64,000 bases of DNA from Candidatus Angelobacter sp. (GTDB taxonomy: Bacteria; Acidobacteriota; Terriglobia; Terriglobales; Acidobacteriaceae): positions 11,554-75,553 of the forward strand of contig DATEHN010000108.1 of assembly GCA_035279585.1 (NCBI GenBank), written 5' to 3'. This document shows, one piece after another, positions 41,153 to 64,000 of this stretch. The notes under the pieces are model-generated. The model saw nothing but the letters and a program-made list of their open reading frames with translations. It was not told the DNA's origin and did not search any database. Both the position numbers and the translations under genes were made by a program. The first letter of the stretch is position 1, and every line of letters starts with the position of its first letter.

Positions 41153-42865
41153 TCATTTTGGCTGCAGAACGCAAAGGCCATTTGAATTACCATTGCTGTA
41201 CAGTGGCGGCAGAGTGGCCGGCGGGAGTCCGGCCTTTTCGATAGGATCAGACCCGCGATACGGCGCCTTGGTTCCACCATAACGTGTACTGAGGTAATCG
41301 TAGACATGCGGCAGTGTTTTGACCAGGTTCTCAGACCGCCTGCGAAGCTCGTCGAAGGCTGCAAAAACCTGAGCTGTGGGCAAATGATCCAGGATCGCCA
41401 GTCCGCGCTTTGGCGCTGCGCCCAGTCCAATCAACATCGAACTGTAGGAATATGCGGTGAAACCGTGGAAATTAGGATTGATGGTTCGGTCGGTTGGCAG
41501 ACGTTCTTTCCACAACTGCAACCGTTCTTTCAGGCCATCGGGTACGACCAGATCGTGCTTTGTGGCTTTCCAGAAGTCGGTATCATCCCTGGTCCCAATT
41601 ACATAATGCATGGTCAGAAATTCGCGAACGCCATCAATGCAATCCGCAACCGCCTTGTTGTAGCTCTTGACGCTGGCCTCGTCGTAGCCGTGTCTGGGAA
41701 AATAATTCACAAGTTGCTCGATCCCGTGGTGAATAAAGAAAATGCCCGTTGACTCCAGGGGTTCTACGAAACCGCTGGCAAGCCCGATTGCCACACAGTT
41801 CTTCACCCATGATCTTGCCGACCTGCCGACTCTCATCTTGATATGCGATGCGCGGCACCCATCGGCCTTCTTGCCTAGATGGTTACGGAACTCCTGCTCC
41901 GCAGCTTCAGGGCTGGTAAAAGCGCTCGAATATACGTACCCTGTGCCGGTTCGATGATAAAGGGGGATCTTCCAGACCCAGCCTGAACTCAAGGCTGTGG
42001 CGGTGGTGTAAGGCTCCATAATATGGTCCGCATGATCGCCGGACACCTGCATGGCAATGGCGCTGTCACAAGGCAGCGACTCGTTGAACGAAATGAAGGG
42101 CTCCTTGAGCGCCCGATTAATCAGCAATCCGCGGAACCCGGTACAGTCAATGAACAGATCACCTTCAATTTCGCCATGGTCTTTGGTCACAATCGACAGA
42201 ATTCGGCCGTCCTCCCCGAGTCTTACGTCTACAACATCATCGAGTACTTGCCGCACACCCTGCTTTTGCGCATAGCCGGTCAAGTATCTCGCGAGTAAAG
42301 AGGCGTCGAAATGATAGGCATAGGGATACTGGATCCTGAGGTCATCCACAAACAATGATTCGTTGTTTGTCTCTGACCCGTTGATGTATCCATCCACCTT
42401 CCGATCAAAAGAATAGCCGTTGAAGTAACGGGGCGACCTTTGCGCATCACAGATTGCCGGGATAGAAAAACATGCATAATCGAACGGCGCGCCCAGTTGA
42501 TCTCTCAGTTTGAGCCACCATTCAATGGTGCTCCATCCCTGCACCAGATCGAATTTCTGAAATGGGTGGTAAAAGTGGCGCCGTTCGCGGTTCCAATTTT
42601 CAAACCGGATCGCGAGTTTGTAGCCGGCGTGGCACTCCGGCATCCAGTCTTCCTCGCGTAAGCCGAGGAACTCGAAAAACAAGTGGATGTAGCTGAAAGT
42701 TGCTTCGCCCACGCCGATGCTGTGGATGTCAGGCGACTCTACGAGTGAAATATCCACCTTGCGGCCGAAGGCTTTGCCGAGGAAAGATGCGGTCATCCAA
42801 CCAGACGAGCCTCCTCCCACGATGACGACTTTGAATTTTCTTTCACTTCCATTGCTGATATCCAT
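41153..42865 (-). CDS. Flavin-dependent (tryptophan-halogenase family) halogenase
   Basis: ATG 42865 is preceded by AAGGATGGAAG. FAD motif VVIVGGGSSGWMTA, then SIGVGEAT. The catalytic-Lys context is AGYKLAIRF and the WxWxIP motif reads GWVWKIPL. Confidence 0.85.
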   Translation of the reverse strand: MDISNGSERKFKVVIVGGGSSGWMTASFLGKAFGRKVDISLVESPDIHSIGVGEATFSYIHLFFEFLGLREEDWMPECHAGYKLAIRFENWNRERRHFYHPFQKFDLVQGWSTIEWWLKLRDQLGAPFDYACFSIPAICDAQRSPRYFNGYSFDRKVDGYINGSETNNESLFVDDLRIQYPYAYHFDASLLARYLTGYAQKQGVRQVLDDVVDVRLGEDGRILSIVTKDHGEIEGDLFIDCTGFRGLLINRALKEPFISFNESLPCDSAIAMQVSGDHADHIMEPYTTATALSSGWVWKIPLYHRTGTGYVYSSAFTSPEAAEQEFRNHLGKKADGCRASHIKMRVGRSARSWVKNCVAIGLASGFVEPLESTGIFFIHHGIEQLVNYFPRHGYDEASVKSYNKAVADCIDGVREFLTMHYVIGTRDDTDFWKATKHDLVVPDGLKERLQLWKERLPTDRTINPNFHGFTAYSYSSMLIGLGAAPKRGLAILDHLPTAQVFAAFDELRRRSENLVKTLPHVYDYLSTRYGGTKAPYRGSDPIEKAGLPPATLPPLYSNGNSNGLCVLQPK

Positions 42866-42994
42866 AGAATTCTTCCATCCTTTTATAAACACAAGTTGAA
42901 ATATCTGGCCGGCGTTGAAAACGCCGTGCACTATCCGGTTTGCCAGGATCAAGCGGACTTCTGGCAGGGAAATTTTGTGGAGGTGGCTTCGGGT

Positions 42995-44542
42995 CTAACT
43001 GCGGAGATGCCCGCTTCCATGGTTGTGGGAAGAAGGTCCCGCCTCGACCAGTCCCGATTCCAGTTCCGGCTCAAGGCAAAACCTCCTGACCGCTTGTTCC
43101 AGCCGTTCCTGCGCTGTTGCCCAGCAACCGGCCTGGCGCCGGACCGCCCGATATTGGTCGAGCCATGTTTCACGAAGTTTTGCAATCTCCGATGCCAAGT
43201 TTTCTGCGGCGGGGCCACCACCATATCTGGCCCTCGCCACACACGACTTCGGATCAAGGTCATCTGGGACATTTTTGAGAATTCCGGTTTCTGACGAGGC
43301 AAGCTGTTTAAGAGAAGTCATGCCGCGTGCAGCCGCTTCAGACACGGCTCTTCCTACGAAATGATGCGCGGAGCGGAAATCCATTCCGCTTTCCAACACC
43401 ATCTGCACTGCCAGGGCCGTCGCATTGGTGAATCCCTCTTCGGCGCGGCGGAGCATCCGTTCAGGGCAGGGACGCGCCCGAGAAACTATCAGCCGCAGCA
43501 ACGTGGTTGCATCAATAATGTCTCGTATGGCGCCCCAAAGAAACCGCACCGACTCGGTGCCTGTGGCGATGGAGTTCGTAAAAGGTGAATTGCGCATGGC
43601 TGTCGCCGCGGTCACAAATGCCCCCAGCGCCGACGCGGTGCGCCCCTGAACGTGTTCCAGGAGAAATGGATTTCTCTTTTGCGGCATGGCTGAACTTGAG
43701 CCCACTAGTTCGTCAGGAAGCTGCAGGAACTGAAATTCGCCGGTGAGCCACAAAAACAAGTCAGTCGAGACTCGACTCAAGGTGACACCCAGGACCGTTG
43801 CTGCAGAGAGAAAGTGCAGGACCAGGTCGCGGGATGCTACCGCATCTACTGAATTGGGGCGTGACGAAGTGAAACCCAGCAACTCGGCCGTTCGCGCAGT
43901 ACTGATTGGAACAGAGGTGCCGGCTACGGCAGCAGCTCCCAGCGGAGATACGTTCACATCACGCGCTGCGTAAATGATTGCATCCAGGTCCCGGCAAACT
44001 GCTTCGGCCACGCCCGCCAGATAGTGCCCATAGGAAATGGGTTCAGCAGGTTGTCCATGAGTGTAAGCCGGCATCACCGTCGCCGAGTGGGCGGTGGCTT
44101 TGCGAATGAGCACCGCCTGCAGCCGCAACACGGCGTTCACTAGCTGAATATAGGGCTGACGCAGTTTCATGCGGATCAGTGTTGCGTTCAGGTCATTGCG
44201 GGATCGCCCCATCTGCAGCATGCCCCCGGCATTATGCCCTTCTCTTTCGATCAAGTAACCTTCATACATCAGAAACAATCCGCGCCATGAAACCGCTTGC
44301 CTGAGCGGACTGAAATTCAGTTGCCGCAGACGCAGGATCGCCTGCAACAAACACCTGGCCGGATCTGCTTGTACGATTCCTCTTTCAGCCAGCATCAGCA
44401 CATGAGCCATGTCAATGGAACTCATGTCAGGGAGATCAGCGTCAATTTGCTGGCTAAGTTCACCCTGGAATAGAATTCGCCGGGCCGTTGCCGATAACGG
44501 TTTCTGAATTCGCCCCGTGCTGGCGTTTGCGAGCGGCATCAC
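42995..44542 (-). CDS. Argininosuccinate lyase-like (fumarase/aspartase superfamily) lyase
   Basis: 515 aa with three superfamily signatures: GRSRNDL, YTHGQPAEP and GSSSAMPQKRNP. Confidence 0.8.
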   Translation of the reverse strand: MMPLANASTGRIQKPLSATARRILFQGELSQQIDADLPDMSSIDMAHVLMLAERGIVQADPARCLLQAILRLRQLNFSPLRQAVSWRGLFLMYEGYLIEREGHNAGGMLQMGRSRNDLNATLIRMKLRQPYIQLVNAVLRLQAVLIRKATAHSATVMPAYTHGQPAEPISYGHYLAGVAEAVCRDLDAIIYAARDVNVSPLGAAAVAGTSVPISTARTAELLGFTSSRPNSVDAVASRDLVLHFLSAATVLGVTLSRVSTDLFLWLTGEFQFLQLPDELVGSSSAMPQKRNPFLLEHVQGRTASALGAFVTAATAMRNSPFTNSIATGTESVRFLWGAIRDIIDATTLLRLIVSRARPCPERMLRRAEEGFTNATALAVQMVLESGMDFRSAHHFVGRAVSEAAARGMTSLKQLASSETGILKNVPDDLDPKSCVARARYGGGPAAENLASEIAKLRETWLDQYRAVRRQAGCWATAQERLEQAVRRFCLEPELESGLVEAGPSSHNHGSGHLRS

Positions 44543-44650: not shown

Positions 44651-46243
44651 TTATTGCAGGAGGATTTCTTTCTCACCAAAAAGCCGTTCCGCAATGACGC
44701 CGCGATCCCGGCAGTACTCGATTAAACGATTCGACTCGACAATCGGTCTGGACTCATCGGTGTACTTGATGCTCATGATGTAGTTCAGCCACGGTTCCTG
44801 GCCCATGGCATAGACGTAAGCTTCCCGGCAGTTGTATTGGTCCACAATGCTTTTCGCCTGCTCAAAATTCGATCCAGAGAGGCGGCGCGATTCATCCAGC
44901 GAGCGCTCGAGCCGTTGAGTCAACAGGGGACCATATAACCAGCTTAGCGGCGCTCCGTCACATTCCATTCCAAGAAAAACGGCATCTATGTCTCCGGTTT
45001 CACGGTGCAAATGCGAGTAGAGCCGCGGCTCGACGTTGCACGAATCAGCTGCGAACAAAAGCGAGCGCCTTCCCGCCTTGACCAGATATGCAAGCTTACT
45101 CGCTATATCAAGGTCGGAGTGTTCTCCCAGAAAGGGAAGTCCCACGATGTCCCCATTGGGGGTGGCGATTTGCTGCATCTGGTCAAGCGATATGACCTGT
45201 TTAAAGCCCGCGTTTCTCAACATGAGTTCCAGCGATGGGTCCTGCAAAGAACCGATTGAATTTCTTGGCACCACAACACATTTCACCTTGTGCCGGATCT
45301 GCAGAAGCGTTTCAAAAAGGACATGGTCCTGGTGATTGTGCGTGATCAGGACGTAGTCAATTGAGTCTGGCAGGTCGCAGTAGGTATAGCGAGAAATATC
45401 GCTCTCATACGTGTAACTCAGCACCGGATCGAACATCATACTGACGCCGCCTGTTTCAATCAGAATGCAGGCGTGCCCGAAATAGCGCCAGCGCACCCCC
45501 TGGCCGGTATAAGGCTCATACCTCGGCGGTGGTTCCTCGGTCAGGAATGACCGCAACAGCTTTTCGTCTTCACCCCCCTTGATGCCAAGCATCTCTTTGA
45601 TCTGGCCAAACGGCTTAGGCGATATTTTTGCCTGAAAGAGCGCGTCGACAGACTCATGGTCAAAGGGAAGACGGACATGCAGCAGGCCATCACCTTCCAG
45701 ACGTGGTGTGCTGAGAACGAACGGACGATCGTCGCCACCAGTGAGCGACAGCATCAGACTCTGGGCTGAGCGGTCGTAATACCTGGAACGGTATAACAAT
45801 GGCTCAAGCAATTTGAAGGATGGCTGGTTGTTCAGGTCATAAACGAGTTCTACATAACCTTTCAGTATGTCAGGAACGTCCTTATATAGTGGTTGAAGAG
45901 ATTGACCTTTCGCTTTGCTCCGCAGACATGTGTCGAGGTTCTGTATGGCTTGCGAGAGCTCAACCAGATGCGAGCGCTCACACCGGATGCGGTCCCGCAG
46001 GGCCCGAATCTCGGCCACTCTCTCCCCTCCATAATCAATGAAAGGCCCACCCGACATTTTTGGATTCTTGACAGCTTTTGCATGCACTTGTGGGGCGCTG
46101 ATGTAGGACTCCATTATTTTCATATGCCGCTCAGTTAGATTGCGCGAGGCAGTGGCCGGCGGAATCAGATGCGCCCACGCATACCATTGATCAATGAGCG
46201 GCTCTACTTGAATGTTCTTTTTTAAATAAAGGAGTTGCTCCAT
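44651..46243 (-). CDS. MBL-fold protein with ~250-aa N-terminal domain; candidate CmlA-like diiron amino-acid beta-hydroxylase
   Basis: 530 aa, RBS GGAGA. The MBL core FGHACILIE...VLITHNHQDH lies in the C-terminal half. Size and two-domain layout resemble the NRPS-associated CmlA family. Confidence 0.5.
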   Translation of the reverse strand: MEQLLYLKKNIQVEPLIDQWYAWAHLIPPATASRNLTERHMKIMESYISAPQVHAKAVKNPKMSGGPFIDYGGERVAEIRALRDRIRCERSHLVELSQAIQNLDTCLRSKAKGQSLQPLYKDVPDILKGYVELVYDLNNQPSFKLLEPLLYRSRYYDRSAQSLMLSLTGGDDRPFVLSTPRLEGDGLLHVRLPFDHESVDALFQAKISPKPFGQIKEMLGIKGGEDEKLLRSFLTEEPPPRYEPYTGQGVRWRYFGHACILIETGGVSMMFDPVLSYTYESDISRYTYCDLPDSIDYVLITHNHQDHVLFETLLQIRHKVKCVVVPRNSIGSLQDPSLELMLRNAGFKQVISLDQMQQIATPNGDIVGLPFLGEHSDLDIASKLAYLVKAGRRSLLFAADSCNVEPRLYSHLHRETGDIDAVFLGMECDGAPLSWLYGPLLTQRLERSLDESRRLSGSNFEQAKSIVDQYNCREAYVYAMGQEPWLNYIMSIKYTDESRPIVESNRLIEYCRDRGVIAERLFGEKEILLQ

Positions 46244-46335: not shown

Positions 46336-47595
46336 TCATGCCAGTGCCAGCGTACCAATATTCATTTTTACTTCGATCTTGCCAATTGCATTCCCGGCCG
46401 CCTGAACGGCTTCGCGTTCACTCCTGGCGCAGGAAATGATATGGCCAATTCTGTCGCGAAAGTCGTGATGAGCAGTAAGGGAATCTCCGGGGCTTTTGTA
46501 TGCCTGCACATCAACGATTGCCGGCAAACGTGTGGCTTGGCTCAAGCCCCTAAAACCTTCAAGAATCCCGCCCGATGGCGGACAGATGAAGCGAATACTG
46601 GCATGCAGATAATGGGCCGCTGAAGCTGCGGTCTGTTGGCCGGTAACCAGCCGAATGGTCTGCTCCACGAGGTCAGTGCCGGTCGAGAGACGTACTAGTT
46701 CAGGTATGAACCCGCCTGCGAGGCGTGGATTGATTTCCATAATGCAGAACCTGTGATTGTCGGTGCGAAACTCAACGTGCACGGGTCCCCAGACCATTCC
46801 AGTCACCCGCAAGGCACGCTGAATGGATGCAATCAGGAACTCTGTGCAATGTGAGGAAAAGACCGCAGGAAAATCGTGCCCTGTTTCCACGAAGTAAGGC
46901 TCACTGGAAACGTACTTGCGGGTAATACCGATGACTTGGCCCTGAAAAACTTCCGCTGAGAATTCCGGCCAGCGAACGTATTCCTGCACGATCGCTTCCT
47001 GACGAACAGTCATGCCTCTTTCATTGGTCTTGACCGCCAACAATTTCTGCGCATGGCTTTCCACCTCAAACGGAGTACGGCATAATTTGACACCCACACT
47101 GCCGGTACCGAATACCGGCTTCAGCACCACCGGCAGAGGCAAATCCTGCAAGCTGCCCAGCGCTTCTTCCACTGAGCCAATGCGCCGTGAAGCAGGCGTC
47201 TCTACGCCTCCGTCCCGCAGGCATTTGTACTGGCGCCACTTGTTCCGACAGGTGCCAACCCTCTCGGGTTCCGCCCCCGGAAGTCCGTGGCGACGAGCCA
47301 ATTCAGACGCAGTCTCAATGAAATACTCCGAACTGCTATAGATACCTGCTATCACCTGCCCTTCCCTCGTCCGGCTGATCGCATCATCCAGGGACTCCAC
47401 ATCACTGGTGCAGGGATGCAGCAGAGTTTCAACTTTGTCCTTGTGCACATAGGAATAGCGCTCAGGATTTTGTGTAATCAAGAGCGGATCAAATCCCAGC
47501 CGCCGCGCGGTAGAGATAAAAATCCTTCCCGTCCCACTCGTATTGCTTTCAATCAGGACGATTCTTGGATGTGCGCTTTTCATGGATTTCATCAC
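46336..47595 (-). CDS. ATP-grasp domain ligase
   Basis: 419 aa with ATP-grasp motifs PVVLKPVFGTGSVGVKLC, IVQEYV and MEINPRLAGG. Confidence 0.8.
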   Translation of the reverse strand: MMKSMKSAHPRIVLIESNTSGTGRIFISTARRLGFDPLLITQNPERYSYVHKDKVETLLHPCTSDVESLDDAISRTREGQVIAGIYSSSEYFIETASELARRHGLPGAEPERVGTCRNKWRQYKCLRDGGVETPASRRIGSVEEALGSLQDLPLPVVLKPVFGTGSVGVKLCRTPFEVESHAQKLLAVKTNERGMTVRQEAIVQEYVRWPEFSAEVFQGQVIGITRKYVSSEPYFVETGHDFPAVFSSHCTEFLIASIQRALRVTGMVWGPVHVEFRTDNHRFCIMEINPRLAGGFIPELVRLSTGTDLVEQTIRLVTGQQTAASAAHYLHASIRFICPPSGGILEGFRGLSQATRLPAIVDVQAYKSPGDSLTAHHDFRDRIGHIISCARSEREAVQAAGNAIGKIEVKMNIGTLALA

Positions 47596-48980: not shown

Positions 48981-50102
48981 TCAGGCAAACTGTTCCACGA
49001 AGTCAGGCTTGATGCCATCCCCAGGGCCCAACTGCATAATATTCACGACGATGCGGATGGCAGCTTCAACCTCATTACTTGTGATCCCATGATGGGTAAC
49101 GGCCCTAATGCGGCCATATTCAAATTCACTCACATGTAGCCCGTAGCGCCACGCAGCGGCAATAAAGCTATCACAATCAAATCTCTTGTCTGTCACTTGA
49201 AACACAACCGTATTTGTCTGGACCGTGTTCAAATCGACCTGAATTCCCGGTATCCGAGCCAGGCCTTCTGCAAGGGCCTTCGCATGGACGTGGTCTTCTT
49301 CCAGGCGGCCTGCCATTTGTTCCAAGGCCACAATGCCGGCCGCCGCGACGATACCAGCCTGGCGCATATCACCGCCTAGAATTTTTCTTTGCCGGCGCAC
49401 CTCTTGAATAAATGCGGAACGGCCGGCCACCATCGAACCTACTGGTGCAGCGAGGCCTTTTGACAGACAGAACTGCAGAGAGTCCGAACATTGGGCGATC
49501 TCGGCCGGCGAGAGCTGCAGTCTGGCGGCAGCATTGAAGATTCGCGCACCATCCATATGCACAGCCACGTCTTGCACACGAAGTGCTTCAGCAACCTCTT
49601 TCAGGTATTCCATGCCGAGAACAATGCCGCCCTTGAGATTATGTGGGTTTTCCAGACACAATACTGCTTTCAAAGCGCCTTGCGCATCGAACTCCCGCAG
49701 TTTCCTGCGAATGTCTTCCAACAAAAGAGTCCCACCCGGCTGTGTAAGCAATGCGTGATATCGAATGCCGGCCCACTCAGGAATGGTGTGGTCTTCGTAA
49801 ACGAAGATGTCGGATTGGTCACCCACCAGGACGTCTTTTCTTCCCAGATTGCGCCATGCCAACAGGCAGCATTGATTCGCCATCGTCCCGCTCACAACCA
49901 GGCAAGCCGCCTCTTTCCGCAGCATGCCTGCGGCGAGTTCTTCGAGATGGTTGACGGTCGGGTCCTCACCATATTGGTCATTGCCCAACTCGGCGTTGGC
50001 AATTGCTTGGCGCATTGCCGAAGTGGGCAGCGTGAAGGTATCGCTGCGTAGCTCGATCTCTCCTCTCGCCCCTCCGGGATTCCCTTTCGTTAAAAAATTC
50101 AT
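48981..50102 (-). CDS. Low-specificity L-threonine aldolase family PLP enzyme
   Basis: IELRSDTFTLPT..., GEDPTVNHLEE, SGTMANQ and the PLP-lysine motif FCLSKGLAAPVGS. Confidence 0.85.
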   Translation of the reverse strand: MNFLTKGNPGGARGEIELRSDTFTLPTSAMRQAIANAELGNDQYGEDPTVNHLEELAAGMLRKEAACLVVSGTMANQCCLLAWRNLGRKDVLVGDQSDIFVYEDHTIPEWAGIRYHALLTQPGGTLLLEDIRRKLREFDAQGALKAVLCLENPHNLKGGIVLGMEYLKEVAEALRVQDVAVHMDGARIFNAAARLQLSPAEIAQCSDSLQFCLSKGLAAPVGSMVAGRSAFIQEVRRQRKILGGDMRQAGIVAAAGIVALEQMAGRLEEDHVHAKALAEGLARIPGIQVDLNTVQTNTVVFQVTDKRFDCDSFIAAAWRYGLHVSEFEYGRIRAVTHHGITSNEVEAAIRIVVNIMQLGPGDGIKPDFVEQFA

Positions 50103-50768: not shown

Positions 50769-51851
50769 TCAAACATCTTTCTTGCCTGTGGCAACCAGCG
50801 CGACTCGCGGAAACTCCACGACATACTTACCGCGGATGTACGCTACTGTAGGCTGCGAGACGGCATCGACTCCCCGAGGAAGATCCGTCGGGAGGAAGGT
50901 CCCATAGGGACGCAGGACCTCGTGGACTTTCTGCCAGAACTTTTCGTCACGCTGCTCCGGCGGTACCAGGAGTTTTTCCAGGCCAAACAAGGAACAGACG
51001 TGCTCGGCAAGACCGCGGCATGCCTCCGTTGGGTCATCGCCGGTTACAACAAATGGATCGTAGACATATTGGACCTTCACTTCCTCGAATCCAGCTTCCT
51101 GCACCAGTGCTTTCATTCCTTCCGGCGTGAAGTGCTCGCACTTGTGTCCGGTAAGCGTATACCGATCCAGGAGATCGCTATACCAGCGGGCTGTCGGAGT
51201 GCCTTCTTCAAAATCCTGGACGACGATACGGCCGCCTGGTTTGAGAATGCGCCAGGCCTCCATGAATGCACCCACCCTGTCACCCGGCGCAATATGGTGC
51301 GTACCGTAGGCAAAAATTGTTTTGTCGACAGACCGATTTTTCAGTAACAAAAAGTGTGCGGGCTCCCGGATCGCTGGCAGGCATTGCAAGAGGGCATCGT
51401 GCACCATGCTGGATGCGGCATCACTGGTAATGATAGTCGGCGTCGTGTGCGGGCTGTTCAGCTTCGTCATGGCTCTAGTCAGTGTTCCATTGCCGCCCAG
51501 CACGTCAACAACGACATCGGATGGGGAAAACGATTCTTCCGGCTCTTTTAGTAAGTCGAATAACTTTTGGATGCCGCGAGCGCGGAGCAAAGGGTTACGG
51601 TTCTGGCCCTGGCGATAGGCCTCACCTCGTCCCCCAACTTCTTTGGACTCGAAATGAGCTGACATCGCGCCCAGTTCGACAAGCAACCTGCTGAACTCGC
51701 TGCTGGATATGCGGAGAAAATCCAGACGATCATAGAGCACAGGATGTTGCGTGCGGCAGATTTCCGCAAAATCGCCAAAGGTCATACCCGGCAAATAGGG
51801 CATCGTTTCGAGTTCAGTGAGGACTTCATGTTCTGCAAATAAAGTTGGCAT
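50769..51851 (-). CDS. Class I SAM-dependent methyltransferase with N-terminal extension
   Basis: Motif I VVDVLGGNGTLT and post-I/II GGRIVVQDF. The likely start is ATG 51851 (GGAAAGGA upstream); the ORF-track start is TTG 51920. Confidence 0.75.
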   Translation of the reverse strand: MPTLFAEHEVLTELETMPYLPGMTFGDFAEICRTQHPVLYDRLDFLRISSSEFSRLLVELGAMSAHFESKEVGGRGEAYRQGQNRNPLLRARGIQKLFDLLKEPEESFSPSDVVVDVLGGNGTLTRAMTKLNSPHTTPTIITSDAASSMVHDALLQCLPAIREPAHFLLLKNRSVDKTIFAYGTHHIAPGDRVGAFMEAWRILKPGGRIVVQDFEEGTPTARWYSDLLDRYTLTGHKCEHFTPEGMKALVQEAGFEEVKVQYVYDPFVVTGDDPTEACRGLAEHVCSLFGLEKLLVPPEQRDEKFWQKVHEVLRPYGTFLPTDLPRGVDAVSQPTVAYIRGKYVVEFPRVALVATGKKDV

Positions 51852-51951
51852 GGTAGGCAGGTCCTTTCCAGTTAGAAAATGGCCCGGTCCGCTGTTCAAG
51901 CGTTCGCTATCACCGATCAAGTTCTTCGATCAAATTCCGGAGTAGTACCCC

Positions 51952-52900: not shown

Positions 52901-53899
52901 TCAGTTTGCTAGCAGCGCTAATTCTGGCGTATTGTCCTTTTCTGCAAATGGATTGTGTTCGACCCAGTGCCTGTAGGCTTGGTTTCGGCCCGTGGTGATT
53001 TTTTGAAATGCCTGCTGAATCCGCTTGGTCACGAAGCGTTCAGCGTTTGGCGTTCCAATAAGCACACCATCAACTTCGCGAATGGGCACGATCTCCACCG
53101 CGGTACCGGTGAAGAATGCTTCCTGCGCACTGAAGAGGTCATTCGGGACGAGCGGTCGAATTTCAACGTCGATGTTGAGGTCCGTTGCAATCGTAATAAT
53201 GGATTGCCTCGTAATGCCCATGAGAATGGAAGAGCGCTGGTCATTGGTGAGCAACCGGTTGTCCTTGACCAAAAAGATATTTTCTCCAGGCCCTTCAGCG
53301 ATATTGCCGTGAATGTCCAGCAACAGCGCTTCGTCGTAGCCGCGTTCGACCGCATACTGCGCGGCCAGCAATGAGTTGAGATACTGCCCACAACCCTTCG
53401 CGGTTGTGGGTAGCATGGAAGAATGGATCTTTTTCCATGGAGCGATCGCAACGCGGATTCCTTCCTTTGTTTTCTCTTCACCAAAAATACTTCCCCATTC
53501 CCAGGCGACTACGGCAACCTGCATGGGCCACTTCCGGGAAGTGAGTCCTAGGTCGTGAGCTCCATACCAGCACAGAGGACGTATATAACTGTTACCGAAG
53601 AGAGAATTCGCCTCCATGACCTGAAACACAGCCTCCGCCAGACGTTGCTTGGAATAGGGGAGTTGCATACCATAAGAGGCGGCTGATTCAAAAAGCCGGT
53701 CCAAGTGGGCCTGAAGACGGAAGACGCCTGGTCCTTTAGCAGTTTTGTAAGCGCGAATACCCTCAAAGACGCCGCTGCCATAGTGAAGACCATGCGAAAA
53801 AACATTGGTTGTGCCCGCATTCCAGGGAACAATTCCGCCATTTAGCCATAGCCGGTGTGCCTGGCTGAATAACGGTGGTTTGCTCGGAATATTTTCCAT
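52901..53899 (-). CDS. Class IV (branched-chain amino acid) aminotransferase
   Basis: ATG 53899 is preceded by AAGGAGAA. Motifs include HYGSGVFEGIRAY and other fold-type IV patterns (ERGYDEALLLD, FTGTAVEIVPI). Confidence 0.85.
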   Translation of the reverse strand: MENIPSKPPLFSQAHRLWLNGGIVPWNAGTTNVFSHGLHYGSGVFEGIRAYKTAKGPGVFRLQAHLDRLFESAASYGMQLPYSKQRLAEAVFQVMEANSLFGNSYIRPLCWYGAHDLGLTSRKWPMQVAVVAWEWGSIFGEEKTKEGIRVAIAPWKKIHSSMLPTTAKGCGQYLNSLLAAQYAVERGYDEALLLDIHGNIAEGPGENIFLVKDNRLLTNDQRSSILMGITRQSIITIATDLNIDVEIRPLVPNDLFSAQEAFFTGTAVEIVPIREVDGVLIGTPNAERFVTKRIQQAFQKITTGRNQAYRHWVEHNPFAEKDNTPELALLAN

Positions 53900-54034
53900 C
53901 TCCGTATTCTCCTTTGCGTTGAACGCATGATCGGCAGAGAGAAGCTCATGGAACAGCGTCATTTGCCGGGTCCTGACACGAGCAGACCACGCGAACGCGC
54001 CAGCGCTGAAATCAAAGAGCCGATGTCTAAAGGA

Positions 54035-56511: not shown

Positions 56512-57555
56512 TCAACCGGTAACACTCAAGCTGGCAAAACCTGCCACTTCGGCATAGGTGCGCTGACCCCATTCCATCCATGACCATCCCGGCCCGGCTT
56601 CGAGAGGGCTCTCCACCTGGCGCGGGGCGGTCGGCAGCACCGATAAATTCAAATTGTTCTGAGCGAGATACTCGTCGTTATAGATCGTATCGACATAGCG
56701 GTGGCCGTCGTCCGGGAAAATGCACACCACTTTGGCCTTCTTGTTCTTTCTCGCCCACTCTGAGGCAATTAACCAGGCGGCGCCGCTAGTGCCGCCGCAG
56801 AACAGAGATGTCTGCCGGTGCAGCTCGCGCGTGGCCTTGTAGGCCTCGGCTGCTGTGACCCAGTGGACCTCGTCGAAAATGGTGTGGTCCAGGTTTTCAG
56901 GCAGCAGGCTGTTGCCGAGCCCCCGCAACTGCCTCGGGCCTTCGGGCTGGCCAAACAACACGCTGCCGAACGTATCAACGCCCACTGCTTTCAAATCGGG
57001 GTAAAGCATGCGTAAATAGCTCGTTGTGCCACACATCGACCCTCCTGATCCCACTGTGCCTACCAGGCAATCGATCTGCCCGAGGGATTCCACCAGTTGT
57101 CCTGCAAATTGACCATAGGCTCCTGGATTACAGGGATTGTGGTACTGGCTAACCCACCAGGTATTCTTCTCTTCCGCTCGGATCTTTTCCAGGCAATCGA
57201 GACGAGCCCTCTGATAGCCGCCTGCAGCCGCCGGACCGCTCACAATCTCTACGCGGGCTCCAAGGTCTTCCAACCGCTTTCGTAACGCGCCTTCGCAGGC
57301 GTAATCCGATACGATCACGAGCCGGTATTTCCTGAGATTGCAGATGATCGCCAGCCCCAAAGCCATATTTCCAGATGAGCTTTCAACAATCAGAGACTGG
57401 GATTGGATCCAGCCTTCTTCCTGTGCGCGCCGTATGCAGAACTCTGCGGGAAAGAGTTTCATGAACGGAAAAACTGCAGCATACAGATTGTGCTCAAGTG
57501 GAACAAGCCGTGGCTGATAGCAGCTGAGAATTGCGGATTCTTTTTGATCACTCAT
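56512..57555 (-). CDS. Fold-type II PLP enzyme of the cysteine synthase family, SbnA-like
   Basis: Lys context FMKLFPA, ESSSGNMALGLA, phosphate loop GTVGSGGSMCG, GGTSGAA and C-terminal IFPDDGHRYVDTIY. From memory, the overall layout parallels SbnA-type beta-replacement enzymes. Confidence 0.7.
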   Translation of the reverse strand: MSDQKESAILSCYQPRLVPLEHNLYAAVFPFMKLFPAEFCIRRAQEEGWIQSQSLIVESSSGNMALGLAIICNLRKYRLVIVSDYACEGALRKRLEDLGARVEIVSGPAAAGGYQRARLDCLEKIRAEEKNTWWVSQYHNPCNPGAYGQFAGQLVESLGQIDCLVGTVGSGGSMCGTTSYLRMLYPDLKAVGVDTFGSVLFGQPEGPRQLRGLGNSLLPENLDHTIFDEVHWVTAAEAYKATRELHRQTSLFCGGTSGAAWLIASEWARKNKKAKVVCIFPDDGHRYVDTIYNDEYLAQNNLNLSVLPTAPRQVESPLEAGPGWSWMEWGQRTYAEVAGFASLSVTG

Positions 57556-57590
57556 GGTATCGACCGTTGGGAATAAAAGTGGAAGTTAAG

Positions 57591-58580
57591 TCAGGTCTGG
57601 AATCTGATGATTTCCTTAATATCCAATGTGCCCAGATCATGCCGTATCCGGTTCACCTTGGTTTCAAGCTGGTGATCGTGAGGATTCAACAGAATACTGG
57701 CCACGGTACCGGAGTGGGCTACTGCCACGCCGAGCGCGTTTGCTGCCCGCGCAATGGCGCGGATTTCAGGAAACATAGGCTTGGGCAGGAATTCCTGATT
57801 GATGGCGGCGCTCGCCATCGCCACCTGTCCAATTACGGCAATGTCCTGGTCGCGGAAGCCTCTGCGCAAACCGGCAACCAGTGCATGAAAACACTGGATC
57901 TGACGCCACGTGTATACCGCGGGCGGAAAGTCCAGCGTATTGACAGCGCCATCGACCTCGGTATCGAACCCCAACACCTCGATCTTCGGTAGTTCCGCGC
58001 CGAATTTCTCGAGAACGACGCCTTCCCGGTGGGCGAACAGAACACTCTGTTTAAACATGACGTTGTCACTTGCAATCTCCGCTTCGACAACAATCCTGGC
58101 CAGATCTTCCTCACTGAGCACCTGACCAATTGAGTCCAAGATGGCAAGAGACGCAGCAGCGCAGTCAGCCGTGGAGCTGCCACACCCCTTCGCTTCATCA
58201 ATATTACTTTCAATTGTCAGTCGCCCTCCCAATGTCTCCAGGCCAAAACGGCTAAGCGTAATTTCAGCAACCCTCCTGGCTTTATTCTTGTGGGCGGGCT
58301 CAATCTCCAGGCCGCCTTCATCCGATGGGATAAAGGTTGCTGTTGAATAGAGGACATTGCACCGCAGGCTAAGCAGAAACCGGCGCTTTTGAAAATTCCT
58401 GTCCTCAAGCTGGCCCTGCAGTATCTCGCCATACTGGCCAATACAAACGCCGGCGCCGATGGCCGGAGGAGAATAGGCAGCCCGTTCGATCAGATGCGTC
58501 CTCTCCAGGATCTCAGAGGAAACCATGGTTCCTGCGCCATTCGTCGAGCCAACACTGAAGTATTTCGCGGCCTGGTTCAT
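57591..58580 (-). CDS. GHMP-superfamily kinase (PduX/ThrB-like small-molecule hydroxyl kinase)
   Basis: N-terminal GQYGEILQGQ (compare GELLQG of PduX-type kinases). GHMP motif II-like EAKGCGSSTADCAAASLA. 329 aa. Confidence 0.6.
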   Translation of the reverse strand: MNQAAKYFSVGSTNGAGTMVSSEILERTHLIERAAYSPPAIGAGVCIGQYGEILQGQLEDRNFQKRRFLLSLRCNVLYSTATFIPSDEGGLEIEPAHKNKARRVAEITLSRFGLETLGGRLTIESNIDEAKGCGSSTADCAAASLAILDSIGQVLSEEDLARIVVEAEIASDNVMFKQSVLFAHREGVVLEKFGAELPKIEVLGFDTEVDGAVNTLDFPPAVYTWRQIQCFHALVAGLRRGFRDQDIAVIGQVAMASAAINQEFLPKPMFPEIRAIARAANALGVAVAHSGTVASILLNPHDHQLETKVNRIRHDLGTLDIKEIIRFQT

Positions 58581-58694: not shown

Positions 58695-60347
58695 TTAAAC
58701 AACCATCTCGCTGGCATTGTCTTTCTGAAGCTGCCGATCGTCGACCACCTGTCCAGTGTCGAGCTTGATGATTCGATCGGCAATGTGGTAATAGCGTTCA
58801 TCGTGACTTATTACAAAGACTGTCTTGCCCATGAGCTTCATTTCAGGCACAAGCTGGCAATAAAACACCTCTCGGAATGCCGCATCCTGGTCCGCAGCCC
58901 ATTCATCCAGAATTACGATGGGCCGGTTCTCCAGATAGGAGACCAGCAAAGCAAGCCGCTTGCGCTGCCCTTGGGACAGGTTCAGGGTCGAAAGAACGCC
59001 GTCCTTGATCTGGACTTTTTCGTCGAGTTGCAACTCACGCAAGTGCGCTGAGACCCGGTAATCGAGAGCGGTTTTTTGAATTCCCAGCAGGCTCTCAAAC
59101 AGATAGAAATCCGCAAAGATCGCGGAAAAATATTGCCGAAAGTTGTCCCTGTTCTGATCGTCGATGGCTTGGCCATCCAATAGGATCGTTCCCTGTTCGG
59201 GTTGATACAATCCGCAGAGCACCTTCGCCAGGGTTGTCTTTCCGCTTCCATTGCCGCCGCTAAGAAAGACCACTTCGCCGGCTGTGAAGCTGAGATCAAT
59301 GGGCCCCAGCACAAACCTTCCGGCTCCATCATCTCTCTGGTATGAAAATCCCACATTGACCAGTTCCAGGCTGTTCCACTTTATCGTTGGCTCCAGTTGC
59401 ACAAACGGTTCTTCCTCTGAATTTCTGGCGGCGAGTGTCAGCCCCATTTGCTCAACCACTTTCACAGCCACATTGGCTTTCCCTATGGCTGGAGCCTGGT
59501 TCATGAGATATCCCACCGGCTCCAGCACATACATCACTACGAAGACGAATGTCGTCAGTTCTTTGTCACTGACGTGCGCCAGGTGCGGAGCAGTAAAAAC
59601 CAGCAGACCAATGGTGAAGAATGCCATCAACTCCCCCCAGGCGTTCCCCAGCACATAAGTTTTCATCGCGGACATGGCATGGCGCTGAAAGCGTGCGGCG
59701 CTTTCCTGCACACCCGTGAAGAACGCCTGGCGTCGTCCACGGTTCAATTTCAGCTCTTTGATGCCGCTGACCAACGACCGCACATGGCCCAGGACATTGT
59801 TATGCTCCATTCTGCCTTTGGCCAAGTGGCGCGCAGCGATCATCATCGGGAGTTGATAGGTGATCAGCCCTACCGTGATTGCCCCAGCCACAACCAGAAA
59901 AAGAATGGGTGAAAGCCAAGCCAGAAAGACCAGACAGGTAATCATGGCAGACAGGTTCACACACCATTGGGGAAAATTCGAGACAGCATTCAGAATACTC
60001 ACGGCATCATCGGTAAGAACGCCGATGAGCCGGGGCAATCCGATTTCTTCCAATTGCCGCAAGGGAACTCCCAGAATCTGGCGGCATAATTCCATCCGGC
60101 ACTTGAACAAAGCCTGTTGTCCGATATGTTGCAGGAGAACCGCAGAGGCCGCCCGCGCAGCCAGCGCCACGCCAGTCAAGGCAACGAACATGAGGATGAG
60201 CCTGCCGGCGCTGCTTGTGTCGTGTTTCAACCCTGCGCTAATGACAACCAGCAGTGCCGCGGAAGCGGCGCCGCCTACAACTCCAGCAATAACGGCCAGA
60301 ATCAGCGAGTGCCGTGAGTGTTGTAGCATAAATCTGACAAGTTTCAT
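58695..60347 (-). CDS. Cyclic-peptide-type ABC exporter (fused TMD-NBD, SyrD/PvdE-like)
   Basis: 550 aa with six TM helices. Walker A GGNGSGKTT, signature LSQGQRKRL and Walker B VILDEWAADQD. This architecture is typical of NRPS-linked cyclic peptide transporters. Confidence 0.85.
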   Translation of the reverse strand: MKLVRFMLQHSRHSLILAVIAGVVGGAASAALLVVISAGLKHDTSSAGRLILMFVALTGVALAARAASAVLLQHIGQQALFKCRMELCRQILGVPLRQLEEIGLPRLIGVLTDDAVSILNAVSNFPQWCVNLSAMITCLVFLAWLSPILFLVVAGAITVGLITYQLPMMIAARHLAKGRMEHNNVLGHVRSLVSGIKELKLNRGRRQAFFTGVQESAARFQRHAMSAMKTYVLGNAWGELMAFFTIGLLVFTAPHLAHVSDKELTTFVFVVMYVLEPVGYLMNQAPAIGKANVAVKVVEQMGLTLAARNSEEEPFVQLEPTIKWNSLELVNVGFSYQRDDGAGRFVLGPIDLSFTAGEVVFLSGGNGSGKTTLAKVLCGLYQPEQGTILLDGQAIDDQNRDNFRQYFSAIFADFYLFESLLGIQKTALDYRVSAHLRELQLDEKVQIKDGVLSTLNLSQGQRKRLALLVSYLENRPIVILDEWAADQDAAFREVFYCQLVPEMKLMGKTVFVISHDERYYHIADRIIKLDTGQVVDDRQLQKDNASEMVV

Positions 60348-60492: not shown

Positions 60493-63400
60493 TCAAGCTG
60501 TGAAAGATGCAAGTTTTTTCAATGTGCCCGCATACTGCACCAAAGCATCCTGGGCGCGGTCCTTTGATACTAGGGCGGGATCATACCCTACATGCAGGAA
60601 CCCGCCCTGCCGGAGTGCGCCCACAAGCGCGGAGCAAACGATTGGAAACGAGAAACGGTCAAACGCGCGCATGTTTTTCAGTTTTAAGTTTGCCGTTGCC
60701 GGAAGGTCCTTCATGTTCCAGAAATTCAGGTAGCGAAAGACCGAGGTAAAAGCTTCGCGCCCGGCCCGATCCGCCAAAAGTTGCGGCAGCGGGTAGGCTG
60801 CATAGGGCTCAATGTCCAGAATATCCTTCTGCACCACTTCTGCCTGCTCTAGAAGCGGCCGCCGCTGCCGGGAAACAATCGGCACGATGTTCCAGAAAAG
60901 CCCTACGGCAGAAAGCGGGTCCGAAAGATATTCTGAGCGCCCGTTCATAAGAACGCCCGTACACACCTGTTCCTGTCCGAGCCAGGCGCGCAGGCTCTCA
61001 AGCCATGCGGTCAGCATGAGGGCCTGCATGGAAACTGCCCGTTTACGTGCCAATTGCACCAATGCCTGGGTCAGATCTGGTTCGATCGGATGCAAAATGC
61101 CAGGGTCGTCGGGCCCAGAATCGCTTGCATCTGGCTGTAAACGTTCCGGCGCGTCAATTCCAGAAAGGTAGTTCTGCCAGAACTGTGCGGCTTTTGCCGA
61201 GCGTCGCACTAATTCCTGCACTGCCACAAATTCGCGGTAAGTCGTGTCCGGTGCCCCGAAGTCGGGTTTTTGACCTAATTTGATTTTTGTATAAGCCTCC
61301 AGAAGCTGGTTGGTGAAAACCCGGTGACCCCAGCCGTCCATGATTGCGTGATGGAAGGAAAACAAGAGATCAAATTCGACAGCGGACCGCAAGAACGCGG
61401 TAACCCTGAACAACGGCACGCTGCGGTTGCCGATATCAAAAAGCCGTGCCCGGTCGGCCAGTAAGGCAGCAGAAATGTGCTCCTCCTGCTCCTCTGCCTT
61501 GAGCTGCGCGATGTCTTCTGTTGCTATCTTGTAGTTCAGGTTGCGGCGTACCCATTGCATCGGCTCGGCACCGTCAAGATGGAAGACGGTCCGCAATGCT
61601 GCGTGCCGGTCCACAACCACACGAAGAGCGGCCTCCAGAGCTTCCGGAGAAAACTGCGGATCTGACAGATGCATGCACTCCTGGATGTGATATACACCTT
61701 GGCTTCCCTGGTTCTCGGCATATTTCTCCAGCATGAACTTCTGCATGCCTGCCACCGGGTAGGCATCAATGACGTCCTCCGGCAGCCCCGGAATCGTCTC
61801 AGGCGCTGGAAATGCCGGTAAAGAAATTCCCTCTGGAAACAAACTTTGGCGGCGTTTCGCTTGAATTGCCTTGCGCAGCCGCCGGATTGTTTGATTGCGC
61901 AGAATATCGGTGGCCGCGATCCCCAGTCCGTAACGGCGCGTTTCCTGGACTAGTTGGACCACCCGCAAGGAATCGCCTCCGAGCGAGAAGTAATTATCGT
62001 CTACGCTGATTCGCTCAATTCCCAGGACTTCTTGCCACACGGCCAGGAGCTTTTCTTCAATCTCATCCAGCGGCTCCCGCAGTTCTGCCGGTTCGGTGGC
62101 CGGAACAGTTGTGGGCAAGGCTTGACGGTCGATCTTTCCATTGGGCGTCAGTTTGAGTTTGTCAACGCAGAAAAGGTTCCTGGGAATCATGTAGTAAGGC
62201 AGGCTTTTTTCCAGAAACTGTCTCAGCTCTTCTGCGGAGGTCCGGGAATGCCCTGTGACCACCCATGCTGTGAGATAGTTGCTCTGCATCTGGTCTTGCG
62301 TGGTGATCACGGCAGCATTACTCACATTGGGATGCCCGCATAATACCGCCTCAATCTCGCCCGGCTCCACACGATAGCCATTGATTTTTACCTGCACATC
62401 CCGTCGGCCCAGGAACTGCATGGTTCCATCGCTCCGGTACCGCGCTATGTCGCCCGTGCGATACATGCGTGCACCCGGCTTTGCGGAAAACGGATCGGGA
62501 ATGAAAGCGTTCGCCGTCAAGGCGGCGTTCGCAGTGTATCCTCGGCCTACGAATTCGCCGCCGACATACAACGCTCCAGAAGTCCAGACCGGGACTGGCT
62601 GCAGCTCTTCGTCGAGCAAATAGGCCCTTGCGCCGATGAAAGGTTGCCCGATTGGGACCGCGTCTCCCGCAAAGCGTTCTGTCTCAGGCCGTGCGGCGCC
62701 GCAAACCACACCGATTGTCGTTTCAGTGGGCCCATAGTGGTTGAACACTGTGCATTCGGGGGCCAGTCGATGCACCTGTTCCACCACTTTCCATTTCAGT
62801 TGCTCTCCCCCGGCGAGAACGTAGCGCCACCGCAATTTTGCGGATTGCGGAAAGGAGTTGCACAGCGCTTCCAAGTGGGCAGGAACAATCTTGATAAAGT
62901 CGATCGGGTGTTGTTGAAAATATTCCGCCAAAGCATCAACGTCTTTCGCTTTCCAAGCGGGTATGACGTGCAGGCATCCACCTGATGTCAGCGCGCCAAA
63001 TACGGCGGTGTAAGCGAGATCGGCCGCCAGGGTAGACACCACAGCGAAATTACTGGTGCTTCGCAAATCAATGTTGGCGTGCTCAGCGCGTATGTAGGCC
63101 GCAATTTGCCCGTGCTCGATGGCTACCCCCTTGGGGTGGCCGGTTGATCCTGAAGTAAAAATCACATATGCGAGTTGGCGCGAATGCGTGCGGGCATGCC
63201 GCGGGCGTTTAGAGGAAATGGCGCCAGGCCGATGATCTTCCAGATAGAGGACCGGGAGCGCGCCGTGGTTGAACGACGAAGAGAGCCCTTGCTGCGTCAG
63301 CACAGCGACGGCCCCGGCCGCTCTCGTCATGTACTCGATGCGCTCGATCGGCATATCAGGCTCGATCGGCAGCCAGGCCCCGCCCGCTTTCATCACGGCA

Positions 63401-64000
63401 AGCATGCCCACGATGAAGTCCGGCGACCTCTCAGCCAGAAGTGCAATAACGGAATCCGCGGTGACGCCGGCTTCCTGCAGACGCTCGCCCAAGATGATCG
63501 CTCGCCGGTTCAGTTCATCATAGGTTAGCTGTTCCGTTTCACCTACGACGGCCAATTTGCCGGGATTGCGGCGCGCCTCGTCTTCAATGATCTCGTGAAT
63601 TGCGCGCCATTCGCTTTTCTGCTCCAAGGGAGCTTCAGCGATTCGTTCTGCAGCAGGAGTCGCGGCGCCCATGACAAATTCACACGCGCGGGTTCCTGGA
63701 TTGGCCGCGATTTCTTCAAGAATAGCCACCAGAGAATCTCCGAGCAGCCTGATGTCCGTCACGGAGAATACCCCGGCGTCCCACGCGAATTCGAGGCGTA
63801 TGGTTTCTTTTCCTGTCACCGATGTCAACCCGAGTTCAAATGGTTCAACTTGTTCAACGACAGAAGTCACTGTCCAGGCATTGCGGTCGTCTACGCCAAT
63901 GAATGGCTGCTCGCGGTTCGCAAATTGTATTGGAAAAAGACAACGGCGTTGAGAAGGGGGCGGGACGCCAAAGGGCTCCCAGGCAAACAGGAACTGGTCG
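60493..64000 (-). CDS. Non-ribosomal peptide synthetase, 3' part (…C-A-T-C), 5' end outside the window
   Basis: I translated the frame upstream of the ORF-track start (GTG 63870) and it stays open to position 64000. The end of a C domain is visible. The A domain carries LTYDELN, MKAGGAWLPIE, YVIFTSGSTGHPKG, NHYGPTETT, YRTGD, GRRDVQVKINGYRVEPGEIE and NGKIDR. The T domain has LGGDSL. A full terminal C domain has HHAIMDGWG. No TE domain is present. Confidence 0.9.
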   Translation of the reverse strand, partial: DQFLFAWEPFGVPPPSQRRCLFPIQFANREQPFIGVDDRNAWTVTSVVEQVEPFELGLTSVTGKETIRLEFAWDAGVFSVTDIRLLGDSLVAILEEIAANPGTRACEFVMGAATPAAERIAEAPLEQKSEWRAIHEIIEDEARRNPGKLAVVGETEQLTYDELNRRAIILGERLQEAGVTADSVIALLAERSPDFIVGMLAVMKAGGAWLPIEPDMPIERIEYMTRAAGAVAVLTQQGLSSSFNHGALPVLYLEDHRPGAISSKRPRHARTHSRQLAYVIFTSGSTGHPKGVAIEHGQIAAYIRAEHANIDLRSTSNFAVVSTLAADLAYTAVFGALTSGGCLHVIPAWKAKDVDALAEYFQQHPIDFIKIVPAHLEALCNSFPQSAKLRWRYVLAGGEQLKWKVVEQVHRLAPECTVFNHYGPTETTIGVVCGAARPETERFAGDAVPIGQPFIGARAYLLDEELQPVPVWTSGALYVGGEFVGRGYTANAALTANAFIPDPFSAKPGARMYRTGDIARYRSDGTMQFLGRRDVQVKINGYRVEPGEIEAVLCGHPNVSNAAVITTQDQMQSNYLTAWVVTGHSRTSAEELRQFLEKSLPYYMIPRNLFCVDKLKLTPNGKIDRQALPTTVPATEPAELREPLDEIEEKLLAVWQEVLGIERISVDDNYFSLGGDSLRVVQLVQETRRYGLGIAATDILRNQTIRRLRKAIQAKRRQSLFPEGISLPAFPAPETIPGLPEDVIDAYPVAGMQKFMLEKYAENQGSQGVYHIQECMHLSDPQFSPEALEAALRVVVDRHAALRTVFHLDGAEPMQWVRRNLNYKIATEDIAQLKAEEQEEHISAALLADRARLFDIGNRSVPLFRVTAFLRSAVEFDLLFSFHHAIMDGWGHRVFTNQLLEAYTKIKLGQKPDFGAPDTTYREFVAVQELVRRSAKAAQFWQNYLSGIDAPERLQPDASDSGPDDPGILHPIEPDLTQALVQLARKRAVSMQALMLTAWLESLRAWLGQEQVCTGVLMNGRSEYLSDPLSAVGLFWNIVPIVSRQRRPLLEQAEVVQKDILDIEPYAAYPLPQLLADRAGREAFTSVFRYLNFWNMKDLPATANLKLKNMRAFDRFSFPIVCSALVGALRQGGFLHVGYDPALVSKDRAQDALVQYAGTLKKLASFTA

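Follow-up and report, generated by a model that had tools for sequence, protein, structure and literature searches.

A split dabABC-type gene module, predicted to supply 2,3-diaminobutyrate, in a nonribosomal peptide synthetase cluster of Candidatus Angelobacter

Introduction

The closest described relative of the system considered here is the dabABC operon of Burkholderia thailandensis E264, which leads to 2,3-diaminobutyrate (Dab; Li et al. 2024, iScience, PMC10906522). DabA, a PduX-like GHMP kinase that is essential in vivo, has been assigned as an L-threonine kinase; DabB, a pyridoxal phosphate (PLP) enzyme resembling SbnA and SulH, joins O-phospho-threonine or O-phosphoserine with L-aspartate in vitro and rejects L-glutamate; and DabC, a two-domain protein with an ATP-grasp and an argininosuccinate-lyase part, converts the aspartate adduct in vivo to (2S,3R)-2,3-diaminobutyrate and fumarate, in a published scheme that assigns no step to the ATP-grasp domain (PMC10906522). 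Elsewhere the two DabC domains are separate proteins, or the ATP-grasp is fused to the PLP enzyme, and the threonine kinase is described as occurring “consistently and exclusively” in producers of Dab, not in producers of 2,3-diaminopropionate (Dap; PMC10906522). Here we analyse a stretch of 64,000 nucleotides from Candidatus Angelobacter sp. (GenBank assembly GCA_035279585.1, contig DATEHN010000108.1, positions 11,554 to 75,553), called the window below, in which a GHMP-fold kinase gene is followed by a gene for a fold-type II PLP enzyme. The pair very likely encodes the first two enzymes of a dabABC-type Dab supply module, lying inside a large nonribosomal peptide synthetase (NRPS) cluster of an uncultured acidobacterium.

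A similar combination of genes, a lyase, a kinase and a cysteine-synthase-like gene within NRPS clusters, is found in the pacidamycin, napsamycin and mureidomycin, friulimicin and lavendomycin-like clusters, and a 2026 paper on a lavendomycin-like cluster assigns its lyase, kinase and cysteine-synthase genes to the synthesis of DABA (Dab). In some clusters of the pacidamycin, friulimicin or lavendomycin type the ATP-grasp is fused to the PLP enzyme, whereas it is a separate gene in the window. Other pathways share the chemistry in part. For instance, SbnA/SbnB/SbnI of staphyloferrin B synthesis, CmnB/CmnK and SulH/SulG also rely on beta-replacement by a fold-type II PLP enzyme whose substrate is an O-phospho amino acid and whose amine donor is itself an amino acid, but SbnA/SbnB, CmnB/CmnK and SulH/SulG use O-phosphoserine and L-glutamate, followed by oxidation by the NAD-dependent SbnB to give Dap. 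The kinase of the staphyloferrin B system, SbnI, is a member of an unrelated family. ThrB and ThrC provide a further parallel, as there too a GHMP kinase turns a hydroxyl into a phosphate that a PLP enzyme eliminates, though the substrate is the gamma-hydroxyl of homoserine and ThrC belongs to another PLP subfamily.

Results

The kinase

The kinase gene (57591–58580, minus strand) encodes 329 amino acids (P0001) with a Pfam GHMP_kinases_N domain (2e-11), and is separated by a spacer of 35 nt from the gene for the PLP enzyme (56512–57555, minus strand), which encodes 347 amino acids (P0002) with a Pfam PALP domain (2e-37). Both are real conserved genes, since each has hundreds of full-length homologues at 50–84% identity, the named top ones coming from Candidatus Angelobacter, Candidatus Solibacter and Terriglobales; equally long contigs recur in the two lists of homologues, an early sign that the genes travel together. 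An earlier note on this DNA had proposed that the pair phosphorylates a hydroxy amino acid and then carries out PLP-dependent beta-replacement. Both open reading frames (ORFs), their spacing and every motif quoted there are present, and the proposed logic holds and matches the published dabABC route. Four features expected of a dabABC module were found, namely kinase motifs I–IV, a PLP enzyme that is SbnA-like yet distinct from SbnA, an ATP-grasp protein together with a lyase, and association with an NRPS.

The kinase contains the motifs GEILQG (G51–G56) and GCGSSTAD (G132–D139). We aligned it with operon-linked DabA-like kinases and with one cobD-adjacent kinase from a cobalamin operon, and four motif blocks, GE(I/L)xQG, GxxSSTxD, ExxxD and AHSG, are unchanged across the DabA-like kinases and the cobD-adjacent one. 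The invariant residues are G51, E52, Q55 and G56; G132, S135, S136, T137 and D139; E168 and D172; and A288, H289, S290 and G291. The critical residues of PduX presumably map onto the window kinase in the same way, a correspondence that we take from the conservation of the motifs. The kinase is 40–53% identical to those heading contiguous kinase–PLP–ATP-grasp–lyase operons, and its homologues bear the JGI label “involved in propanediol utilization” (the PduX COG). The cobalamin-operon kinase, a distant tblastn match from Acetoanaerobium (27% identity), lies directly after a CobD-like threonine-phosphate-decarboxylase gene in the order cobB-cbiB-cobD-kinase-cbiC-cbiD, the setting expected of a cobalamin threonine kinase. 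The PduX/BluE–CobD systems are thus alike in having a kinase of the same GHMP subfamily with all four motif blocks, whose product, predicted to be O-phospho-L-threonine in the window as well, is handed to a PLP enzyme; they differ in that the downstream CobD is a decarboxylase, and in the low identity of the kinase. We predict that the window kinase is a DabA-like, PduX-type O-kinase for L-threonine (or L-allo-threonine). The earlier note had instead considered it a possible non-orthologous replacement of SbnI that supplies phosphoserine, which is unlikely, as the pair matches DabA and DabB, where the kinase is assigned to L-threonine.

Among NCBIfam models the kinase touches only those for homoserine, mevalonate and CDP-ME kinases, all far below cutoff, and it matches no threonine-kinase model; a search of the PDB gave nothing significant (best E 0.014). 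The cobalamin-operon kinase itself (L093:6971–7873, Acetoanaerobium noterae) likewise gave no match in NCBIfam at E ≤ 1e-10. A naming model for PduX-type threonine kinases seems to be lacking, which would explain why they are annotated as bare “kinase” or “hypothetical protein”. The two ThrB models give 34.5 and 40.1 bits against cutoffs of 168 and 194, so the kinase does not belong to thrB. The comparison with ThrB/ThrC, also made in the earlier note, survives as a general scheme of activation and elimination; as a true analogue of that pair the system was rejected, being contradicted by the model scores, the tree and the gene linkage.

Kinase homologues were also seen in other company. On a plasmid of Paraburkholderia sabiae (L007) one adjoins a 541-residue DabB-like PLP enzyme, extended at its C-terminus by a part that, judged by eye only, looks like an acetyltransferase (GNAT). 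On a Rhizobium leguminosarum plasmid (L090) the order is nucleoside triphosphate (NTP) transferase, kinase homologue, CDP-alcohol phosphatidyltransferase and asparagine-synthase-like protein, and on the Bacillus thuringiensis plasmid pLM1 (L091) it is kinase, alanyl-tRNA-editing-like protein, cysteine-synthase-like protein, MalY/PatB C-S lyase and DMT transporter. The last is a distant variant with neither an ATP-grasp nor an argininosuccinate-lyase-like gene, and its PLP enzyme falls in the SbnA/CysK clade of the tree discussed below.

The PLP enzyme

The PLP enzyme contains FMKLFPA, with the catalytic Lys33, as well as ESSSGN, GTVGSGGS and IFPDDGHRYVDTIY. Its best NCBIfam model is that of the SbnA family (TIGR03945), with 228.8 bits against a cutoff of 349.95 and an alignment that begins only at model position 37. 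Representatives of the window type score between 180 and 230 bits on this model, while true SbnA relatives (P0360 and P0370) reach 397 and 385, and in a maximum-likelihood tree the SbnA/CysK-like clade (support 100/99) stands apart from the window protein and the PLP enzymes of the four-gene operons, of which the Azospirillum one is about 49–51% identical to it (alignment/tblastn). The resemblance to SbnA-type enzymes that was first proposed holds as to the best model, but the score and the position in the tree set the enzyme apart from SbnA. The first ~36 positions of the SbnA model are absent, and a C-terminal extension of ~45 residues carries conserved tryptophans. A public gene call (P0122, 316 amino acids) begins at Met32, a single residue ahead of Lys33; the start that gives 347 residues is correct, as homologues conserve P15, R16, L24 and F29. 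We predict that the enzyme is DabB-like and joins O-phospho-threonine with L-aspartate through Lys33 as the Schiff-base lysine.

The closest solved structure is again SbnA (8e-38), whose Arg132 and Tyr152 align with the conserved Arg118 and Tyr138 of the window enzyme. As these two residues of SbnA bind O-phosphoserine, the structure, the model and the alignment would all fit an enzyme that performs SbnA-type chemistry with L-glutamate, its adduct then being cleaved by some route other than SbnB in which the distant ATP-grasp and lyase genes have no part. We nevertheless regard this as extremely unlikely. Besides the score below the SbnA cutoff and the separate clade, the window ORFs that we scanned include nothing resembling SbnB, relatives of the enzyme are nearly always linked to an argininosuccinate-lyase-like gene, which implies an aspartate adduct, and Ser185 of SbnA is replaced by a glycine (G169) that is invariant in the window subfamily. 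DabB, moreover, refuses L-glutamate.

The lyase and ATP-grasp genes

Two further genes of the same gene string, 9–14 kb downstream of the pair and contiguous with it in related loci, had been overlooked in the first reading of this DNA. One encodes an ATP-grasp protein (46336–47595, minus strand; ATP-grasp_4 and LAL_C2 domains), the other an argininosuccinate-lyase-like enzyme (42995–44542, minus strand; Lyase_1 and ASL_C2) with the lyase signature GSSSAMPQKRNP. The former covers positions 5–394 of the 890-residue NCBIfam fusion model PRK02186 (351 bits) and the latter positions 407–884 (423.6 bits), so that between them they make up a known fusion protein, the one being equivalent to the N-terminal and the other to the C-terminal domain of DabC. 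The lyase is predicted to release fumarate and so to give Dab. The split DabC also stands in for what had seemed a missing SbnB: the earlier note had pointed out that no SbnB-like dehydrogenase is present and that the route may not be the canonical one via N-(1-amino-1-carboxy-2-ethyl)glutamic acid (ACEGA), and indeed we found no SbnB- or ornithine-cyclodeaminase-like gene among the ~40 larger window ORFs scanned (Pfam/NCBIfam), the argininosuccinate-lyase-like enzyme taking the place of SbnB.

Conservation of the module

We scanned prokaryotic genomes, one for each species, with an alignment of five sequences as query; this identified 289 relatives of the PLP enzyme in many phyla, and the counts of loci given here rest on the best 80 of them. 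In 42 of the 80 loci no more than 1.5 kb separates the kinase from the PLP gene, and 65 have the two within 10 kb of each other. When considering the 50 loci with at least 8 kb of flanking sequence on both sides, and counting partners within 10 kb, the kinase is found in 44, the ATP-grasp in 47 (94%), the lyase in 46 and all four genes in 40, with an NRPS adenylation (A) domain in 37. Co-occurrence of the kinase and PLP genes had been suggested as a check in the earlier note.

The four genes are contiguous, with no gene between them, on two acidobacterial metagenome contigs (L001 and L002), where they adjoin NRPS, CmlA-like, halogenase and ADOP genes. A Streptomyces plasmid (L008) has the same operon next to an NRPS, and in the version carried by an Azospirillum plasmid (L009) one transporter gene is inserted. 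The proteins of such contiguous operons are 40–68% identical to those of the window; for the Streptomyces plasmid the values are 40, 46, 40 and 49% for kinase, PLP enzyme, ATP-grasp and lyase, over nearly their full length. A closer relative of the window (L003) has the interrupted layout seen there. A complete module is also seen on a 66-kb contig of a metagenome-assembled genome labelled Candidatus Woesearchaeota (L019), with a PLP enzyme 55% identical to that of the window, which is either a horizontal transfer or a binning error.

Public annotations of the homologues read “cysteine synthase”, and with a PduX-type relative in a cobalamin operon one could picture an ordinary cysteine synthase beside an unrelated small-molecule kinase, such as a threonine kinase of the cobalamin pathway. 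The close linkage of the kinase in the 80 loci makes this hardly credible, as do the scores of the cysK, cysM and cysKM models (104–154 bits against cutoffs of 344–394), by which the enzyme is not the ordinary O-acetylserine sulfhydrylase that the earlier note had held out as a competing outcome. The window ORFs that we scanned include no cobalamin genes, and the neighbours belong to the NRPS cluster.

Adenylation domains and the product

The NRPS gene adjoining the module runs off the window (60493–64000, minus strand; Pfam AMP-binding, PP-binding and Condensation), where it encodes part of a condensation (C) domain followed by A, thiolation (T) and C domains. The full gene, of 1496 amino acids, is found on an identical Logan contig (L004/L092), which matches the window exactly over the shared 9005 nt and extends upstream. 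The A domain in the window has the code DLTKLGHIGK (Asp), with a TauD gene adjoining, and that of the next module DAEHIGAITK. A domain ~11 kb past the window end (L092:932–1258) has the code DIWEINTDDK. This resembles DVWEMNADDK of SulM-A3, a domain of solved structure that activates Dap or methyl-Dap, in which the aspartates at positions 8 and 9 bind the C3 amine and which has homologues with Ile at position 2 (PMC12042044); from this resemblance the NRPS is predicted to activate a 2,3-diamino acid. Of the 54 A domains neighbouring DabB-like genes, 24 have the two-aspartate signature, among them an A domain that lies inside a PLP–lyase–ATP-grasp–A–kinase operon of ~20 Streptomyces species. 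Examples of hosts with this embedded arrangement are S. canus, S. tendae and Kitasatospora aureofaciens. The “mode 3” pocket of the SulM-A3 type (FD[IV]S.W ... YGATE..DD) has been reported as absent from known clusters other than that of sulfazecin; we see it in L092, and also in L014 and L037–L089.

The main rival to a Dab module is one in which the same enzymes make L-2,3-diaminopropionate, either because the kinase acts on L-serine or because the PLP enzyme takes cellular O-phosphoserine together with L-aspartate and the lyase then sets Dap free. The A-domain code cannot separate the two products, since SulM-A3 and E264-A3, with codes like that of the cluster's domain, kinetically prefer L-Dap. 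DabB and DabC do make L-Dap from O-phosphoserine and L-aspartate, both in vitro and in vivo (PMC10906522), and the substrate specificity of DabA comes from evidence other than in vitro assays. We still consider Dap an unlikely product. O-phosphoserine is a primary metabolite, so a dedicated kinase would be unneeded; in known clusters the kinase occurs only among Dab producers; and the motifs of the window kinase are shared with a threonine-kinase-type protein from a cobalamin operon. Four Streptomyces loci (L064, L075, L084 and L089) also bear on this, as they keep the PLP enzyme, lyase, ATP-grasp and two-aspartate A domain and have no kinase within 10 kb, which fits the kinase as a Dab-specific addition; they may be producers of Dap rather than Dab, which would agree with the rule that the kinase marks Dab.

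The gene string and the aldolase-like gene

The kinase and PLP genes sit within a single long minus-strand gene string (window ORF order; Pfam/NCBIfam). It begins with the NRPS gene, which runs from 60493 to the window end, and a cyclic-peptide export ABC transporter (58695–60347, minus strand; TIGR01194, 468.8 bits, above cutoff), followed by the kinase and the PLP enzyme. Next come an ADOP permease, an IlvE-like aminotransferase, a type II thioesterase, an S-adenosylmethionine (SAM) methyltransferase and a flavin reductase, then a PLP enzyme of the GntG family resembling threonine aldolase, a CPA2 antiporter, the ATP-grasp protein and a CmlA-like beta-hydroxylase, and finally the argininosuccinate-lyase-like protein and a tryptophan-halogenase-type enzyme. 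A scan for promoters and terminators gave no more sites than in shuffled sequence, so operon structure is read solely from strand and short gaps.

Several of these genes suggest tailoring of the peptide. Two diiron beta-hydroxylases of the CmlA-like kind are encoded in the cluster, together with a TauD-type oxygenase beside the Asp module and a halogenase that is flavin-dependent and has its own reductase (hydroxylase and halogenase genes at L092:3530–5224, L092:10001–11041, and window 44651–46243 and 41153–42952), from which a heavily hydroxylated, halogenated peptide is predicted. The methyltransferase and the aminotransferase (50769–51920 and 52901–53962) are of kinds whose pairing elsewhere leads to beta-methyl amino acids by way of a keto-acid intermediate, for instance beta-methylarginine in the lavendomycin-like cluster.

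The aldolase-like gene (48981–50102, minus strand) matches the GntG family model NF041359 with 374 bits, above cutoff, and that for low-specificity L-threonine aldolase with 235 bits, below cutoff. Its homologues (35–48% identity) immediately follow the lyase gene in four other loci (L016, L077, L081 and L087), and dab-like operons of the pacidamycin type that contain a threonine aldolase go with (2S,3S)-Dab (PMC10906522). The uridyl-peptide clusters have the same addition, linked to the same isomer, although in the window the link between aldolase and module is our proposal. The enzyme is a possible fifth member of the module, setting the stereochemistry at C3, and its recurrence directly after the lyase hints at the (2S,3S) isomer. 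A broader version, in which the aldolase helps to make (2S,3S)-Dab or a diamino acid with another C3 substituent rather than plain (2S,3R)-Dab, and the ATP-grasp carries out a step missing from the three-step scheme, is speculative, and we would not expect it to be correct; if it were, the product would be the first halogenated, beta-hydroxylated peptide containing a 2,3-diamino acid from Acidobacteria.

A different view is that the kinase and PLP enzyme take some other beta-hydroxy amino acid as substrate, perhaps one that the GntG-type aldolase makes from glycine and a different aldehyde, so that a new 2,3-diamino acid would result. The aldolase encoded in the window speaks for this, as do the TauD enzyme and the hydroxylases of the CmlA type, encoded there and on the contig that extends it, and the quite different contexts of more distant kinase relatives, but we give it very little chance. 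A pocket of the SulM-A3 type accepts at most a methyl at C3, the window proteins cluster tightly with those of the standard four-gene operons, and hydroxylases of the CmlA and TauD types usually act on carrier-bound residues.

Discussion

The system is a new, split, acidobacterial example of an already described four-gene pathway. We infer each step at this locus from homology, synteny and the literature. In the first, the PduX-type kinase would phosphorylate L-threonine on its beta-hydroxyl; should the linked aldolase be involved, the substrate would be L-allo-threonine. The PLP enzyme, by analogy with DabB, would then bind O-phospho-threonine through Lys33 and eliminate phosphate to leave an amino-crotonate intermediate, to which the alpha-amine of L-aspartate would be added. 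As DabC does in vivo, the lyase (42995–44542) would eliminate fumarate while the C3 amine stays behind, giving 2,3-Dab, and the two-aspartate, SulM-A3-like A domain ~11 kb past the window end would probably load this diamino acid onto the NRPS.

Several points weigh against this assignment. The module is split in the window, where intervening genes that are unrelated to it place the ATP-grasp gene 9 kb away from the PLP gene and the lyase gene 12 kb away. The likeness to DabA, DabB and DabC of B. thailandensis (BK065153) is drawn from their description, that species not being among the best 80 loci, and the A-domain codes were assigned by hand from alignment with a GrsA-PheA segment, with a numbering that reproduced the known DAWTIAAIC. 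In the model system itself, DabA was insoluble and was not assayed in vitro, so that its specificity for threonine comes from genetics, motifs and context (PMC10906522), and in vitro SulM-A3 and E264-A3 favour L-Dap over Dab.

Compared with dabABC of B. thailandensis, the window has the same PduX-like kinase, an SbnA-like PLP enzyme (with the Schiff-base lysine at position 40 there and 33 here), ATP-grasp and argininosuccinate-lyase-like functions, and a linked A domain with a two-aspartate pocket. There, however, the genes form one three-gene operon with a fused DabC, whereas here DabC corresponds to two genes and the module is interrupted by the permease, aminotransferase, thioesterase, methyltransferase, flavin reductase, aldolase, antiporter and hydroxylase; in addition the host is acidobacterial and the product is not a monobactam.

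The pathway has already been published, and the finding opens no new mechanism. Its use lies partly in annotation, where the four genes should be read jointly as a 2,3-diaminobutyrate supply module rather than under the separate labels “cysteine synthase”, “argH” and kinase. The module, together with the two-aspartate A-domain pocket with which it is often paired, could also serve as a marker when mining genomes for peptides that contain 2,3-diamino acids, and for Candidatus Angelobacter it predicts one building block of a peptide that is as yet uncharacterised.

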